From positions 1-9,199 of IMG/VR virus record IMGVR_UViG_2602041549_000006: 9,199 bases of DNA, one strand, 5' to 3'. The notes beneath the pieces are model-generated. The model saw only the letters and a list, made by a program, of their open reading frames with translations, was not told the origin of the DNA and made no database searches. A program made the translations under genes and the position numbers. Each line of letters starts with the position of its first letter. The stretch's first letter is position 1. Of this stretch, positions 4,814 through 9,199 are shown piece after piece. Origin of the DNA: a virus. Its lineage: Duplodnaviria > Heunggongvirae > Uroviricota > Caudoviricetes.

Positions 4814-5521
4814 TTATGCCGCCTGTTTTAGCTCGTTAACTCTGATGTTCATTACCTGAACGCATTTAGCCTGCGCATCCTCATTGCCAGCCATTAATTG
4901 CCAGTCACGCTGATAACGCTCTATGAGTTTTTTCTTGTCAGTTTCTGTTGATGCATAATCGCTGAAGTCTTTCAGGATTTGTTCGCAGTCAACCGATGGA
5001 GATTTCTGGTTGGTATTTTCTGGTGATGGTTTGTTATCTGATGCTGGGATTGCCCATCCCGGCAGCGATGGAGGGAGCCAGTAAAATCCTGTTCCATCCT
5101 TCAGTTTTGCCCTGTGCCACCCCTGCTTTTTATCGAGAGATGTTTGTGCGAAACCTTCCTCAAGGTTATACAGATACCGACCGATTCCCCATTGAACGGC
5201 AGCACGCTTCATTGCACCGGAACGACCACCTTTGACGGCTTCTACCTGCGTGTTTTCAGCAGCATCCCATTTGGTTACCCATTCGGAATCAATCTTGATT
5301 GATATGCCGCATTCAACTCCGCCGTTGTTGGGAATATCGCGGTATTCATTGCGCCATCCTGCTTTGCCGCAAACATCGTCCAGGCGTTTCATGATTGCCC
5401 GGTTCGTGACATAAGCCAGCACCATAGCCCACACCTTGCCATCGCGTGTTTTACCGCTTTGCTGTATTCGCCATTCGATATCTTCAGGGCTGAATGGCTC
5501 ATCGAATTTGTTCAAATCCAT
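4814..5521 (-). CDS. Single-strand annealing recombinase, Rad52/Sak-like family (235 aa); functional analogue of lambda Bet / P22 Erf
   Basis: Motifs GWRNEY, GGVECGISI and AVQWGIGRYLY fit Rad52-family annealing proteins (recalled). Sits immediately upstream of ssb, with a GAGGTGA SD. Confidence 0.65.
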   Translation of the reverse strand: MDLNKFDEPFSPEDIEWRIQQSGKTRDGKVWAMVLAYVTNRAIMKRLDDVCGKAGWRNEYRDIPNNGGVECGISIKIDSEWVTKWDAAENTQVEAVKGGRSGAMKRAAVQWGIGRYLYNLEEGFAQTSLDKKQGWHRAKLKDGTGFYWLPPSLPGWAIPASDNKPSPENTNQKSPSVDCEQILKDFSDYASTETDKKKLIERYQRDWQLMAGNEDAQAKCVQVMNIRVNELKQAA

Positions 5522-5620
5522 AATTCACCTCAGAATGGACACGGCCCAAGAAAATAACGCTGATTTAATACTTCGACTCGGGACAAATTAAGGCATACCC
5601 GCATTCCTTCGCGGTCACCA

Positions 5621-5779
5621 TTATGGCGATACCAGAGAGCTTTCTGCGTGTACATGCGTCTCTGTAACTTGCTCTCCTTCACTGTGGTTGCAAGTGACAT
5701 GAATATCTCCTTCGTTACCGATTAATTCTTTCATCTGACGAATGAATTCTTCGTCTGACCATTTATCTGTAAAACTCAT
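5621..5779 (-). CDS. Small protein (52 aa) in the kil position, downstream of and translationally coupled to cIII; function unknown
   Basis: ATG at 5779-5777 overlaps the cIII stop as ATGA. Assignment is by position only; the longer track ORF 5621..5809 would overlap cIII by 34 nt. Confidence 0.35.
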   Translation of the reverse strand: MSFTDKWSDEEFIRQMKELIGNEGDIHVTCNHSEGEQVTETHVHAESSLVSP

Positions 5780-5946
5780 GGACGGCCTTGTTGTTTCAAA
5801 ATATCCCAAAGCTTTTCGAGCAAACTTTTCATTCTTGGTTGTTTAAAGTCTGCTCCGGTTAAAATGTTTTTTCGTGAATGCTGTACCGATAAAATCGGGT
5901 TGAAAGGGCGAACCGATGCCGCCCCTGCAATAGCGAACTGTTGCAT
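5776..5946 (-). CDS. cIII: CIII-like protein (56 aa); regulator that protects CII from FtsH
   Basis: Internal ATG at 5946-5944 with an AAGGAG SD. The protein MQQFAIAGAAS...LLEKLWDILKQQGRP resembles lambda CIII (MQYAIAGW...LIDILNQPGVP) in start, length and C-terminus. The longer track ORF would read through the terminator hairpin. Confidence 0.65.
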   Translation of the reverse strand: MQQFAIAGAASVRPFNPILSVQHSRKNILTGADFKQPRMKSLLEKLWDILKQQGRP

Positions 5947-6011
5947 AGGATGCTCCTTCTGTTTGATTGCATAACGAAAACGCCTCGAGTGAAGCGTTAT
6001 TGGTATGCATA

Positions 6012-6036
6012 TAAAAAAGCCCTCACACTGGAGGGC
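6012..6036 (-). terminator. Intrinsic terminator on the minus strand (tL1-like), downstream of the N plus orf156 unit
   Basis: The minus strand reads GCCCTC-cagtgt-GAGGGC followed by TTTTTTAT: a 6-bp GC stem, 6-nt loop and T6 tract. There is no T-tract on the plus-strand side. Confidence 0.6.
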
Positions 6037-6098
6037 AAAGAAGATTTCCAATAATCAGAACAAGTCGGCTCCTGTTTAGTTACGAGCGACATTGCTCC

Positions 6099-6126
6099 GT
6101 GTATTCACTCGTTGGAATGAATACAC
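6099..6126. repeat. Perfect 9-bp inverted repeat (GTGTATTCA-N10-TGAATACAC) just 3' of orf156
   Basis: Read directly from the sequence; no adjacent U-tract, so not a classical terminator. Confidence 0.5.
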
Positions 6127-6140
6127 AGTGCTTATTCGTA

Positions 6141-6611
6141 CTAATAAAACACCCAGTTTTCTGTTTCTTGGTTGTGTCCAAAGTTATATTCAATACCTGG
6201 TGTTGATGTATCAATATTCTTCATCCCATCAACAAGAGTTGATACAACAGCCAAATCTTGTTTGATTCTCATCAAATGGTATTTCTTCCGGCGCAATAAA
6301 CTTTCAATGGCAAGTTTCTTCGTCGGGAATGCAAAAGATCTTTCTGCATTTTTTGCTACTTTCTTAATTGCATATCTATTTCTCCTTTGTTTCCATTCCT
6401 GTAACCACTGATTTGGTGCTGGTTTAAAATTAACAATCCAATGCGCAGGAACCAACCATGCATAATGCTCTGTCTGATGAAAAGCTATATATTGAAGTGC
6501 GAATATTTTGATTCCATCTTCTTCAACTGTCGCTTGGAATCTCCAGAAAACAGGCATTCCATCATGTTCAGTTTCTGATTCAGGAAAAGGTACGCTCCAT
6601 GATTTTGTCAT
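6141..6611 (-). CDS. Hypothetical protein (156 aa), AT-rich moron in the ral/sieB position directly after N; function unknown
   Basis: ATG at 6611-6609 with SD GAGGTGA overlapping the N stop codon. The segment is visibly AT-rich compared with its flanks. No recognisable domain, no transmembrane segment. Confidence 0.6.
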   Translation of the reverse strand: MTKSWSVPFPESETEHDGMPVFWRFQATVEEDGIKIFALQYIAFHQTEHYAWLVPAHWIVNFKPAPNQWLQEWKQRRNRYAIKKVAKNAERSFAFPTKKLAIESLLRRKKYHLMRIKQDLAVVSTLVDGMKNIDTSTPGIEYNFGHNQETENWVFY

Positions 6612-6619
6612 ATATCACC

Positions 6620-6955
6620 TCAAATAAGTGGTTTGCTGCCTAATTTCATTTTCTGGCGACCAACACAAGTCACACCCATTTCACTGCGTGGCTTGCGGTA
6701 GTAAATACGATTCTGTTTACTCTCGACTTCATCTGCCTTCTTGCAGCGAAGGATTCCGAGTGATATTGCTTTTTCAGAAAGGCTTAAACGCTTTCTTGGG
6801 GCTTCCTGAACAGGTTCCTCACTGTCTGTGCCGAAGATAGAATCAATGATGTTGCAGATGGCATCACGCTCGATAGCCAGCTTTCTGCGCCGCTCATGAC
6901 GGCGAGTTTTGGCATTTCCTGCAAATGTTGATTTCCCGTACACGATTACCGTCAT
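6620..6955 (-). CDS. N: Antitermination protein N (112 aa) with a P22-type arginine-rich motif and a lambda-like C-terminus
   Basis: The N-terminus MTVIVYGKSTFAGNAKTRRHERRRKLAIER matches the P22 N ARM peptide (recalled); the C-terminus YYRKPRSEMGVTCVGRQKMKLGSKPLI parallels the lambda N C-terminus (WYSKPGERGITCSGRQKIKGKSIPLI). ATG at 6955 with AGGA upstream; the track ORF extends to 7039. Confidence 0.85.
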   Translation of the reverse strand: MTVIVYGKSTFAGNAKTRRHERRRKLAIERDAICNIIDSIFGTDSEEPVQEAPRKRLSLSEKAISLGILRCKKADEVESKQNRIYYRKPRSEMGVTCVGRQKMKLGSKPLI

Positions 6956-7074
6956 GATGTTTTCCTCATGTGAAATGGCTTTGGTGGTGATGCGCCAGAT
7001 GCTGATCTTCTGGTTGCTGTCGTTGCAGCTGCAATTCACATCACCGCCAAATCCATCTCGTTTGGTATCTGTTT

Positions 7075-7109
7075 GCGCTTTGTCAGCGCCCCATCGAAGT
7101 TAAAGAGCA
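7075..7109 (-). promoter_or_regulatory. nutL: boxA (TGCTCTTTA) and boxB hairpin (GCGCTGACAAAGCGC)
   Basis: On the minus strand: boxA-like TGCTCTTTA, a 12-nt spacer, then a 4-bp GCGC stem closing a loop that contains GACAA. This matches my recollection of P22 nutL boxB. It lies between the predicted PL and N. Confidence 0.7.
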
Positions 7110-7154
7110 TGCCAATCTGTTCCGTTTGGCTTCCAGCTTCCTGCTGATGGCTAA

Positions 7155-7183
7155 ATAGTACGATGTGTACTTTATTGAGTCAA
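7155..7183 (-). promoter_or_regulatory. PL candidate: -35 TTGACT (7178-7183), 17-bp spacer, -10 TACTAT (7155-7160), overlapped by operator-like palindromes
   Basis: Hexamers read on the minus strand. The 13-bp perfect palindrome TATTGAGTCAATA (7173-7185) overlaps the -35 and AGTAC-N5-GTACT (7157-7171) overlaps the -10/spacer. Confidence 0.5.
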
Positions 7184-7242
7184 TACAAAATGTTCTAAAT
7201 ATAATTAGTTTTTTATAACGCTTTGTATTTAATAGGTTTATA

Positions 7243-7278
7243 TTTTGGAAAAAGAAAACCCGACGCTAAGGTCGGGTT
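7243..7278 (-). terminator. Intrinsic terminator downstream of cI (weaker on the plus strand)
   Basis: 8-bp stem AACCCGAC/GTCGGGTT with a 6-nt loop; on the minus strand it is followed by TTCTTTTTCC, on the plus strand by ATTGTTGTGTATTTT. Confidence 0.6.
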
Positions 7279-7308
7279 ATTGTTGTGTATTTTAGAGTTG
7301 TGAGGCTG

Positions 7309-7968
7309 TTAACTAAATGTCTCTTCAGGCCACTGGCTGGCGATAACTTTCCCTACTACGGAACAGCTATCATTGCATGGAATCATTGGATATTGCGGGT
7401 TTAGTGGCTGTAGGAACACCTGACCGCTATCCCTGATCAGTTTCTTGAAGGTAAACTCATCACCTCCAAGTCTGGCTATGCAAAAATCACCGGGCTCAAT
7501 AGCCTGCTCAGGGTCAACAAGAATTAACATCCCGTCAGGAAAGCTTGGCTTGGATCCTGTTGGCGCGGTCATGGAATTACCTTCAACCTCAAGCCAGAAT
7601 GCAGAATCACTGGCTTTTTTGGTTGTGCTTACCCATCTCTCCGCATCACCTTTGGTAAAGGTTCTAAGCTCAGGCGAGAACATCCCGGCCTGAACATGAG
7701 AAAAAACAGGGTACTCATATTGTTTTTTAACGGGGGCAGATGAGTATTCGCCAACAGGTGAAAATGTACCGTCGTGGTTGAATGAGACGTTATCAATACC
7801 AAGGTATTTAAACACCACACCAATCTCGTCAAGAGATGGATGACGAGATCCGCGCAACCAGTGACCAATTCCACCCTGCGTCATACCAAGCTCTTCAGCT
7901 AACTTCTCTTGAGTTATGCCGAGTTCTTTCATTCTGGATCTAGCCAGTTCATACCATTTCATTTTCAT
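7309..7968 (-). CDS. cI: CI-type prophage repressor (219 aa): non-lambda N-terminal HTH domain fused to a lambda-cI-like LexA/S24 C-terminal domain
   Basis: The C-terminal about 130 aa ([19 protein letters not shown] ... [12 protein letters not shown]) is near-identical to lambda cI as I recall it, including the Ala-Gly cleavage site and the Ser and Lys of the catalytic dyad; the N-terminal about 85 aa is different. ATG at 7968-7966 with an AAGGA SD; the track ORF extends to 8043. Confidence 0.9.
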
Positions 7969-8024
7969 ATCCTTATTATTACGCTCTGTACTAAAACCAT
8001 CCATGCACAAGATGTATTTTTTGT

Positions 8025-8053
8025 TTGCATTCCAAAAGTACATATCGTATTAT
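8025..8053 (+). promoter_or_regulatory. PR candidate: -35 TTGCAT (8025-8030), 17 bp, -10 TATTAT (8048-8053), inside the OR region 7969-8079
   Basis: Best sigma70-like match on the plus strand upstream of cro; SD GGAGGG at 8071-8076. Operator half-sites could not be defined confidently; AGTACATATCGTATT (8036-8050) and ATTACGCTCTGTACT (7979-7993) resemble the OL element. Confidence 0.4.
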
Positions 8054-8079
8054 TGTTTCATGATTACTATGGAGGGCAT

Positions 8080-8295
8080 ATGAGCAACCTACGAAAATAT
8101 CGAGAGTCACTGAATATCTCTCAAACAACACTTGCTAAGGCGGTTGGATGCACACAGGGAGCTATCGGACATTGGGAATCTGGTCGTCGCTTCCCAGACC
8201 TTAAAACATGCCGTGCTCTTGTTGCGTGCCTAAACAAGTTAGGCGCAAAAGTCAGTCTTGATGACGTGTTCCCACCGGAACACAAAGCCGCTTAA
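8080..8295 (+). CDS. cro: Cro-like HTH repressor (71 aa)
   Basis: Divergent from cI across a 111-bp operator region; ATG at 8080 with a GGAGGG SD; HTH segment QTTLAKAVGCTQGAIGHWESG. The track ORF 7909..8295 is an upstream extension without an SD. Confidence 0.8.
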   Translation: MSNLRKYRESLNISQTTLAKAVGCTQGAIGHWESGRRFPDLKTCRALVACLNKLGAKVSLDDVFPPEHKAA

Positions 8296-8305
8296 TAAGC
8301 GGATC

Positions 8306-8340
8306 CGCTCTTTATCAATCTGCACCGCCGACAACGCGGT
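8306..8340 (+). promoter_or_regulatory. nutR: boxA (CGCTCTTTA, 8306-8314) and boxB hairpin (ACCGC-cGACAAc-GCGGT, 8324-8340)
   Basis: Consensus boxA followed 9 nt later by a 5-bp stem whose loop contains GACAA, the same loop core as the nutL boxB, as expected for a P22-type N. Confidence 0.7.
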
Positions 8341-8352
8341 AACTAATTAAGC

Positions 8353-8385
8353 ACTCATCGAAAGATGAGTATTAGTGATTATTTA
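8353..8385 (+). terminator. tR1-position hairpin (ACTCATC-GAAA-GATGAGT) followed by a weakly T-rich tract
   Basis: 7-bp stem with a GAAA tetraloop between nutR and cII; the downstream tract ATTAGTGATTATTTA is only moderately U-rich, so this may be a weak or N-suppressible terminator. Confidence 0.35.
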
Positions 8386-8394
8386 CCTATGGAA

Positions 8395-8437
8395 ATAGTA
8401 AGAAATGGAACAAACAAGTTACAGCAAACTATCACAG
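8395..8437 (-). promoter_or_regulatory. PRE-like CII-dependent promoter: TTGC-N6-TTGT box (8424-8437) and -10 TACTAT (8395-8400)
   Basis: On the minus strand TTGCtgtaacTTGT lies at codons 7-11 of cII, analogous to the lambda TTGC-N6-TTGC site in early cII codons; a 17-bp spacer then TACTAT. Confidence 0.4.
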
Positions 8438-8701
8438 CGCGATGTTGATCGCGCAGAAACAGATTTACTTATCAACCTGTCAACGCTTACACAGCGCGGT
8501 CTGGCAAAGATGATTGGCTGTCATGAATCGAAGATAAGCAGAACGGACTGGAGATTTATTGCTTCGGTCTTGTGTGCTTTCGGAATGGCATCAGACATCA
8601 GTCCGATTAGCAGGGCTTTTAAGTATGCGCTTGATGGACTCACCAATAAAAAACGCCCGGCGGCAACCGAGCGTTCTTATCAAATACAAATGGAATTTTA
8701 A
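8405..8701 (+). CDS. cII: CII transcriptional activator (98 aa)
   Basis: The C-terminus LTNKKRPAATERSYQIQMEF is nearly identical to lambda CII (ILTNKKRPAATERSEQIQMEF, recalled); length and position after cro and nutR fit. Confidence 0.9.
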   Translation: MEQTSYSKLSQRDVDRAETDLLINLSTLTQRGLAKMIGCHESKISRTDWRFIASVLCAFGMASDISPISRAFKYALDGLTNKKRPAATERSYQIQMEF

Positions 8702-8712
8702 CAACATCCAGC
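8646..8712 (-). ncRNA. OOP-like antisense RNA overlapping the 3' end of cII (terminator 8645-8673, putative -10 TATAAT at 8719-8724)
   Basis: On the minus strand: stem CGCUCGG/CCGGGCG (one G-U pair), loop UUGCCG, then UUUUUUAUU; matches my recollection of the lambda oop terminator. A TATAAT hexamer lies about 70 nt upstream on the minus strand. The 5' end is inferred. Confidence 0.5.
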
Positions 8713-8723
8713 GAGGTAATTAT

Positions 8724-8867
8724 ATGCGAAAAACGCAGGAAAATAAACGCGTTAATCACCGAAAAGATGTGCTACGTGACCAGTTTTATCAGGGGGTTAA
8801 TCCAGCAATAGCTGTGCCACTGAGAGAAATACTTAACAGGTACAAAACTTCGGAGAAGTCAAAATGA
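8724..8867 (+). CDS. Small hypothetical basic protein (47 aa) between cII and the replication gene
   Basis: ATG at 8724 with a GAGGT SD; stop overlaps the next start as ATGA. The track ORF 8559..8867 extends upstream into cII in another frame. Confidence 0.4.
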   Translation: MRKTQENKRVNHRKDVLRDQFYQGVNPAIAVPLREILNRYKTSEKSK

Positions 8868-9199
8868 GCATGAATCTTATGGCTAAGGCCATGAATATAA
8901 AGGTTGGCAACCCACTGAGAAAACTGGTTCTGATTAAACTTGCCGATAACGCCAATGATAATGGCGAATGCTGGCCTTCATATCAACATGTCGCTGACCA
9001 GTGTGAGGTGAGCAGATCGACAGTAAAAAGTCACATTAGGGCACTGGAAGAGATGGGGCTTTTGAAAAGGGAATTCAGAAGAAAAGGAGAGCTTAACCAG
9101 TCAAACGTTTTTTATCTGACGCTGGATAATGCACAACAAATCCAACCAGAATCAGGTGGGGCAGGAGCTGCCCGGGGTGGGGCAGGAGCTGCCCGGGGT
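8864..9199 (+). CDS. Replication initiator, O-like, with N-terminal winged-HTH (5' partial, runs off the window end)
   Basis: Open frame from the ATG at 8864 to the window end (112 codons, no stop). The translation MSMNLMAKAMNIKVGNPLRKLVLIKLADNANDNGECWPSYQHVADQCEVSRSTVKSHIRALEEMGLLKR is HTH-like and the gene is in the O position; iteron-like repeats lie inside it. Confidence 0.65.
   Translation, partial: MSMNLMAKAMNIKVGNPLRKLVLIKLADNANDNGECWPSYQHVADQCEVSRSTVKSHIRALEEMGLLKREFRRKGELNQSNVFYLTLDNAQQIQPESGGAGAARGGAGAARG
9155..9199 (+). repeat. Iteron-like direct repeats (putative ori): 21-bp unit GGTGGGGCAGGAGCTGCCCGG, two exact copies plus the start of a third at the window edge
   Basis: Exact tandem copies at 9155-9175 and 9176-9196; each unit contains the dyad GGGCAG-gag-CTGCCC. 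In frame they encode a Gly/Ala-rich linker (GGAGAARG repeated). Confidence 0.6.

Follow-up and report, generated by a model that had tools for sequence, protein, structure and literature searches.

Does the window, i.e. the whole stretch of 9,199 nucleotides analysed here, end within the replication origin of a prophage? The window represents the early region of a lambdoid prophage, with genes for an exonuclease, SSB, an Erf-type annealing protein, an N-like antiterminator and the cI repressor on the minus strand, and with cII (8405-8701) followed by an HTH_36 initiator gene on the plus strand. The order of genes is cI, cro, cII, the initiator gene and a gene for a Toprim and DnaB-like protein. 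The initiator gene runs off the edge of the window, and a set of short direct repeats begins shortly before this edge. The original prediction regarded these repeats as iterons embedded in an O-like gene, similar to those of phage lambda, with the full array and any AT-rich unwinding region located beyond the window. Based on the data presented below, we consider it probable that the repeats are the iterons of the prophage replication origin, embedded in that part of the initiator gene which encodes a flexible linker; we infer this origin function from sequence comparison.

Within the window, two exact 21-bp units and the first three nucleotides of a third were confirmed (Table 1), and both complete units carry the predicted dyad GGGCAG-gag-CTGCCC, with arms of 6-7 bp and a 3-nt centre (shuffle p 0.002-0.009 for the 6-bp arms). 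Counted from the ATG at 8864, 291 nt of the ORF precede the array (about 290 bp had been predicted), which directly follows the HTH_36 domain. Translation of the two units as GGAGAAR agrees with the proposed Gly/Ala-rich linker. G+C content is 82% in the units and 0.82-0.85 in the array. A scan of the whole 9.2-kb window for the dyad 15-mer with up to 3 mismatches displays 4 matches, i.e. the two sites on both strands, where 0.15 matches are expected by chance and where none of 200 shuffles reached 4; outside 9159-9173 and 9180-9194 the dyad core is absent from the window at this threshold. Also in the replication region of the relative L002 (3500-7600, including the helicase gene), the array is the sole multi-copy repeat besides the operators. 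Search of the whole window against Rfam gave no match, and a promoter and terminator scan of 7900-9199 gave counts not above those of shuffles.

Table 1. Features of the initiator gene and the repeat array at the end of the window (window coordinates).
Feature	Position	Strand	Remark
Replication initiator gene, first 112 codons, HTH_36 type ('Eru5' HTH protein)	8864..9199	+	runs off the window
Winged-helix DNA-binding domain, aa 17-67	8912..9064	+	Pfam match coordinates
Presumed recognition-helix region, aa 49-63	9008-9052	+	VSRSTVKSHIRALEE; alignment of nine relatives
Repeat unit 1, 21 bp	9155..9175	+	GGTGGGGCAGGAGCTGCCCGG, encodes GGAGAAR
Dyad of unit 1, GGGCAG-GAG-CTGCCC	9159..9173	.	proposed initiator-dimer site
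Repeat unit 2, 21 bp	9176..9196	+	GGTGGGGCAGGAGCTGCCCGG, identical to unit 1
Dyad of unit 2, GGGCAG-GAG-CTGCCC	9180..9194	.	15-mer scan
Start of unit 3, GGT, 3 nt	9197..9199	+	cut at the window edge

The first 70 residues of the encoded protein match the Pfam family HTH_36 (PF13730, 9.4e-15), and PHROGs lists the protein as 'replication initiation protein / O-like'. Neither the window protein nor the full-length protein of L002 matches PF04492 (Phage_rep_O) at E<=0.01, and comparison of the N-domain profile with the lambda-O-type N-domain of contig L048 by hhalign gives a probability of 0.3%, i.e. no detectable relation. The designation of the gene as O-like therefore holds for its function only, while a homologue of lambda O is ruled out by the HTH_36 assignment, the missing PF04492 match and the hhalign result. 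None of the plasmid Rep families in Pfam reaches its threshold (RepL displays 16.6 bits at a cut-off of 20.3), and comparison with solved structures yields none below E = 0.06, listing generic winged-helix regulators only.

An HTH_36 protein together with a primase constitutes the 'Eru5' replication unit of Shiga-toxin phages, with Stx2a_F403 (AP012529.1) as representative (Fagerlund et al. 2022, PMC8951638). The locus described here belongs to this unit, as it displays an HTH_36 protein downstream of cI, a primase gene next to it, and a match to AP012529.1: positions 8400-9199 of the window are 98.2% identical to Stx2a_F403 over 99%, and the same holds for phi24B and Min27. The window ends upstream of the primase gene; in relatives with a complete locus, the initiator gene is followed by a gene for a Toprim and DnaB-like primase-helicase of 626 aa, and a Toprim_2/DnaB_C gene is present 3' of the initiator gene in L002, L213-L215 and L217. 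Full-length initiators of relatives comprise 243-301 aa, depending on the number of repeats (full genes in L002, L214 and L215). The work on Eru5 is a gene classification only (PMC8951638), and neither of the Eru papers mentions iterons or an origin (PMC8951638, PMC8044961). In the searchable literature we found no description of, and no experiments on, an Eru5-type origin, and the repeat and block sequences matched unrelated primers only.

A look-up of contigs encoding exactly the cII protein of the window gave L214 for the continuation of the array. This contig matches the final 3,795 bases of the window (5405-9199) with 100% identity and extends past the edge, as predicted: the array comprises six units, of which five measure 21 bp and one 24 bp, and is followed by AGAACCTATCACTCTTTTGAACCAGTCAATGAACC, a conserved block discussed below, and by the remainder of a 279-aa protein. 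L215 displays four units, whereas L213 and L217 display one unit each, with one mismatch in 3.8 kb. Contig L219 ends at the same base as the window. Ten other viral contigs begin in the array or adjoining it (the region of L036-L041 and L043-L045), and three phage records have an end inside it, among them 'complete' records with arbitrary ends (MG197996 and LC768498). Because so many contigs and records break at this site, it is most likely that the repeat caused an assembly break at the end of the window.

The number of units varies considerably. Complete viral loci carry 1-6 units per array, with three in phi24B and in the Stx2a prophages of O157, and the spacing of units within the family is 21 or 24 bp. 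In a large protein collection the initiator lengths range from 265 to 301 aa in steps of 7 aa, and in finished E. coli genomes a 321-nt query with four units spans 255 to 468 bp, which corresponds to about 1 to 11 units. Arrays with a single unit present a difficulty for a lambda-like mechanism, because unwinding in lambda needs two iterons and the A+T tract (PMC7466680). Some of these single-unit alleles are draft assemblies nearly identical to the contig with six units, and collapse during assembly or a defect of the prophage may explain part of them; single-unit spans are, however, also found in a finished genome and in a phage record. In a sub-lineage (L032-L034, L043 and L045) every unit carries GGGCAGGAGCTGACC, a C to A substitution which replaces Ala by Asp and weakens the dyad; the same contigs display E to D and S to L substitutions where the N-domain ends and the linker begins. 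Occurrence of the same substitution in all units shows homogenisation by slippage or conversion, i.e. concerted evolution. In practical terms, assemblies of E. coli prophages repeatedly break at the array, and its variable length makes it a marker for them.

In L042 (IMGVR_UViG_2537561977_000031) an element of the IS110 family at about 1051-2501 lies between two array units and splits the initiator gene; its transposase ORF is located at 1077-2273 on the minus strand (Pfam DEDD_Tnp_IS110, 6.9e-49). The central triplet of the unit at the right junction is flipped from GAG to CTC, as it is in the first unit of L195.

The block directly 3' of the arrays comprises 28-35 nt of the form AGAACCAGTCACTCTTT(T/A)GAACCAGTCA..GAACC, also written as AGAACC(AG/TA)TCACTCTTTTGAACCAGTCAA.GAACC. 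It starts at 3880 in L214, about 85 nt past window position 9199, and is found at 4843-4877 in L002. The block has a G+C content of 43% and contains GAACCAGTCA twice, 18 nt apart. An exact match to a 28-mer of the block is present in at least 120 viral contigs, and among the matches listed all are single copy, all are located inside the ORF of an HTH_36 initiator, and 81 distinct N-terminal sequences are represented. Conservation of its synonymous sites extends across phages of Escherichia, Klebsiella, Salmonella, Vibrio, Aeromonas and Stenotrophomonas. The block marks the point past which the C-terminal domains of relatives become unrelated. A codon alignment of eight relatives gives a third-position identity of 0.44-0.69 for the N-domain, its most conserved protein stretch included, and of 0.96-0.97 for the 12 codons of the block. 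The block is hence constrained as DNA.

The AT-rich region postulated downstream of the array is present in a modest form only. In the window family, the 40-mer with the lowest G+C content of the gene (0.30, a value tied with that of another low region upstream) starts 6 nt into the block, right after the array. The outcome named as speaking against the original prediction, i.e. only two copies and no AT-rich region, is thus not what the extended sequence displays: it has six units, and the stretch of the gene with the lowest G+C content comes next. The stretch is, however, of about 30-35% G+C, and the tract downstream of the window-family array has an A+T content of 65-70%, compared to a tract of 17% G+C in a lambda-type relative. 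Across the family, the lowest-G+C window follows the block in only 49 of 142 distinct genes, and owing to this inconsistency an A+T-rich tract was rejected as a family-wide feature.

These data may also be read in a different way, namely that the repeats are bound by the initiator or by another protein for regulation only, as in autorepression, copy control or origin pairing, and that initiation takes place elsewhere, for instance at the block alone or within the gene for the primase-helicase, an arrangement known from some primase-helicase replicons. The block of 28-35 nt is indeed more strongly constrained than the repeats, the number of units is highly variable and goes down to one, and the A+T tract is weak. 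We nevertheless consider this reading unlikely. No other repeat family is found in L002 3500-7600, the helicase gene included, the regulatory roles of iterons are compatible with origin function, and a lambda-type relative with the same helicase has a complete origin at the exact position of the array.

This lambda-type relative consists of 37 viral contigs (L046-L082), which share with the window family the C-terminal domain of the initiator (the last 140 residues are 86-87% identical), the primase-helicase (99.7% identical) and the position of the origin. Their N-domain, on the other hand, is Phage_rep_O (1.2e-37 for the L048 protein), and the conserved block is lacking. Between the two domains these contigs carry a fixed set of four TGTCAC-N7-GTGACA iterons with a spacing of 20, 24 and 23 bp, a tract of about 17% G+C, and an inverted repeat with 14-nt arms, which together represent the layout of the lambda origin. 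Presence of this layout at the same position supports the prediction of lambda-like iterons in the linker part of the initiator gene. Homology with the window family begins at the inverted repeat with 14-nt arms. The DNA-binding domain and the repeats have thus been exchanged jointly as a module, precisely where the array of the window is located, which is the expectation if the N-domain recognises the repeats. The shared C-terminal DNA segment also matches replication genes of ES18 (gp59), Sf101 and vB_EcoP-720R6.

The shared C-terminal part ends in a tail, ...SKPSSAITVSKTGYVFFDR (5203-5262 in L002), which is common to the window family, the chimera with a lambda-O-type N-domain (end of the L048 gene) and Salmonella phage S107 (L084). 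The central region of S107 is otherwise different, yet both the tail and the primase-helicase are kept. The Toprim and DnaB-like primase-helicase is present in 3 of 3 types with this tail and in 0 of 7 relatives with other C-termini. The tail may hence be regarded as a candidate helicase-docking peptide. A two-part initiator would fit this distribution, with the N-domain and the repeats recognising the origin and with the C-terminus recruiting the helicase.

Ten phages with N-domains 72% down to 38% identical to that of the window were fetched (hosts: Klebsiella, Salmonella, Vibrio, Shigella, Stenotrophomonas, Aeromonas, Psychrobacter and E. coli), and 9 of the 10 display their own tandem array of 15-24-bp repeats at the same position, encoding different peptides. 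All eight relatives with 47-72% identity carry 1.9-5 tandem units with a period of 21-24 bp at about aa 90-125, directly after the winged-helix domain. Across the window and these relatives, the peptides encoded by the units are GGAGAAR, PPMPSDGT, STPPVPPE, SAGDSLGG and PSDKMSP. Most of the relatives' units contain a centred dyad, e.g. TGCCA-N5-TGGCA, TGTGC-N9-GCACA, TAGTG-N9-CACTA or GTGACA-N3-TGTCAC; in the units of Vibrio phage D65 no clear dyad was found. SfII (L091, 43% identical) has 15-bp repeats instead of repeats of 21-24 bp, and phiP27 (L092, 38% identical) has both 15- and 24-bp repeats. These 15-bp tandem repeats, TCTGACCCGTCAAAA and TGAACCGTCAAAATC, are located at about aa 104-134 of the two initiators and are closer to the block motif GAACCAGTCAA than to the dyad units.

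Symmetry of the elements was assessed with a 19-mer in a fixed register directly 5' of the block, taken from 77 distinct sequences with no selection for symmetry. On average 5.18 of 8 arm positions pair in this register, compared to 1.3-3.4 at shifts of -8 to +8 and to 2.0 expected by chance. Among 30 distinct elements, arm pairing amounts to 5.03 of 8 positions, while permutation of the right arms among these elements yields 3.27 +/- 0.29, and none of 5000 permutations reaches the observed value. At position 5 from the centre, 14 elements have GC and 10 have CG (6 mismatches); at position 6, TA is found 13 times and GC 15 times (2 mismatches); at position 7, GC is found 16 times and TA 14 times, without any mismatch. 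Both arms thus change together, from which it follows that selection acts on a symmetric nucleic-acid element rather than on a peptide.

These results bear on the possibility that the array is a coding minisatellite, i.e. a low-complexity Gly/Ala linker that is prone to slippage and has no role as DNA. Such a view would be in line with units that are exact and in frame, with about 1 to 11 copies and protein lengths that change in steps of 7 aa, and with the sub-lineage in which concerted evolution has placed the same substitution in all units. Slippage, however, accounts for the number of units and not for their symmetry; the covariation of the arms and the register-specific symmetry are unexpected if only the peptide is constrained. 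Moreover, a Gly/Ala coding artefact had been named as an outcome that would speak against the original prediction, whereas homologues were found to keep the DNA architecture (period, position and centred dyad) with quite different, unrelated peptides. We therefore regard the minisatellite as quite improbable. Formation of mRNA hairpins by the dyads, e.g. for ribosome pausing between the domains or for stability of the message, appears highly improbable to us. It is true that the G+C-rich array gives a strong RNA fold (-60.4 kcal/mol, z -3.4) and that compensatory changes would preserve RNA stems too. In many classes, however, the arms are A+T-rich and 5 bp long, around centres of 5 nt (e.g. 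TAGTGAAA-ata-TTTCACTA), and would form marginal hairpins. Only 6 of 19 mismatched arm positions are of the G.T type (a number too small to be decisive, without clear enrichment of wobble pairs), the outer half-site triplets show the partial conservation between classes that is seen in protein-binding sites, and the lambda-type counterpart at this position matches the lambda iterons, which are established DNA sites (PMC7466680).

The origin reading also agrees with a tabulation of repeats against the presumed recognition helix of the N-domain, in which the dyad sites were chosen by their symmetry. The helix ..SRSTVK.HIR.. of the window family, shared by a separate lineage (L113, L195 and L198), is found with TGGGGCAG-gag-CTGCCC, and the helix ISKRSVM.. 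of Shigella and Aeromonas phages with TAGTGCAG-gag-CTGCAC. The helix MTRRSAI.. is associated with TAGTGAAA-ata-TTTCACTA, IDRSTVR.. with TGTAGGCA-cac-AGCCTACA, and CSK.AVRNHI with TATGCCAT-ctg-ATGGCACA. Repeat classes hence track helix classes, and the outer triplets of the half-sites (GTG...CAC and variants) are partly conserved across them. This match is suggestive only, because helix and repeat are encoded within 200 bp and are inherited together by shared ancestry. Taken together with the arrays of the 9 diverged relatives and the covarying arms of the dyads, it is the lambda-like iteron reading that these data support.

Based on this dataset, we consider the following course of events at the putative origin most likely. 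Dimers of the initiator would bind each dyad via the winged-helix domain, in analogy to lambda O dimers on 19-bp iterons, and the resulting nucleoprotein array on 2-11 sites would distort the DNA. The adjoining stretch, i.e. the conserved block and the segment of about 40 nt with 30-35% G+C, may then open, as assumed by analogy. The C-terminal domain and the tail would recruit and load the primase-helicase of the Toprim/DnaB-like type encoded downstream, and rightward early transcription from the cI/cro region would cross the array, as it does in lambda. Exact units in frame may expand and contract by slippage, such that the linker would change by 7-8 residues only.

Iterons within the initiator gene of a phage are a well-known kind of element. 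In ori-lambda, iterons and an A+T-rich tract are located inside the initiator gene O, and the iterons are tandem sites of about 19 bp, each of them an imperfect inverted repeat (PMC7466680). The Stx phages 933W and P27 have a variant of ori-lambda with six iterons, in which the number of iterons alters the length of the protein (PMC7466680). The window family resembles ori-lambda in that the array occupies a central position in the initiator gene and separates the part for DNA binding from that for recruitment of the partner, that tandem inverted-repeat units encode the linker, and that a less stable stretch follows, albeit a weak one; as in 933W and P27, the number of iterons varies between phages and alters the length of the protein. 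It differs from ori-lambda in that the N-domain is HTH_36 and not Phage_rep_O, in that the units are exact, 21-24 bp long and of 82% G+C, in that about 1-11 units are found instead of the fixed 4 or 6 of the lambda type, in that the downstream tract is only 65-70% A+T, and in that a block conserved at the nucleotide level lies between the array and the low-G+C tract. Theta plasmids with Rep of the pPS10, F or RK2 type carry tandem direct repeats of about two helical turns beside an unwinding element, which are bound by a winged-helix initiator in the form of Rep monomers. Such plasmid iterons are normally intergenic and not individually symmetric. The repeats of the window, unlike those of plasmid Rep-iteron origins, are intragenic, each of them is symmetric, and the encoded protein matches no Rep family at the Pfam threshold. 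Judged by sequence, the gene is not a member of the lambda O family, and the locus is very probably an origin of lambda-like layout in the HTH_36 initiator gene of an Eru5 unit.

A broader view may be taken, according to which the repeats represent the variable half of a widespread, hitherto undescribed HTH_36 origin design, conferring specificity, and the block its invariant half. The block would then be a shared site of opening or loading, or a second (perhaps single-strand) site of the initiator, and would double as a crossover for the swapping of modules. We consider this two-half design possible but doubtful. If true, natural pairs of helix and half-site would constitute a readable specificity code, and the polymorphism of 1-11 units would tune replication or the exposure to defences that sense origins. 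Lamassu is reported to sense origin structures at the iterons of lambda (PMC12663957).

Eru5-type Stx phages such as phi24B, Min27 and Stx2a_F403 occur in outbreak strains, and the replication region of Stx phages has been linked to the stability of the lysogen and to toxin output (PMC8044961, PMC8951638). A predicted origin with sites, binding domain and partner helicase makes the replication of Eru5 phages accessible to experiments and may open a way to interfere with it. Further work seems most rewarding on the block, which is conserved throughout the family, and on the natural combinations of recognition helix and half-site.

Two further observations concern the initiator gene itself. In Min27 (L001, about 4869-4890), one T is missing in a 12-bp palindrome, ATGTTCGAACAT, just after the block; the resulting frameshift accounts for the shorter annotated O protein of 222 aa, and it represents either a sequencing error or a real defect. 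At the 5' end of the gene in the window, an inverted repeat of 20 nt (8779-8798 and 8909-8928, 90% complementary and 110 nt apart) flanks the ribosome binding site and the ATG at 8864. The RNA of 8772-8935 folds with -50.9 kcal/mol (z -4.4), none of 200 shuffles being as stable, and the start region is closed in a long stem, which might regulate how the initiator mRNA is translated or processed.
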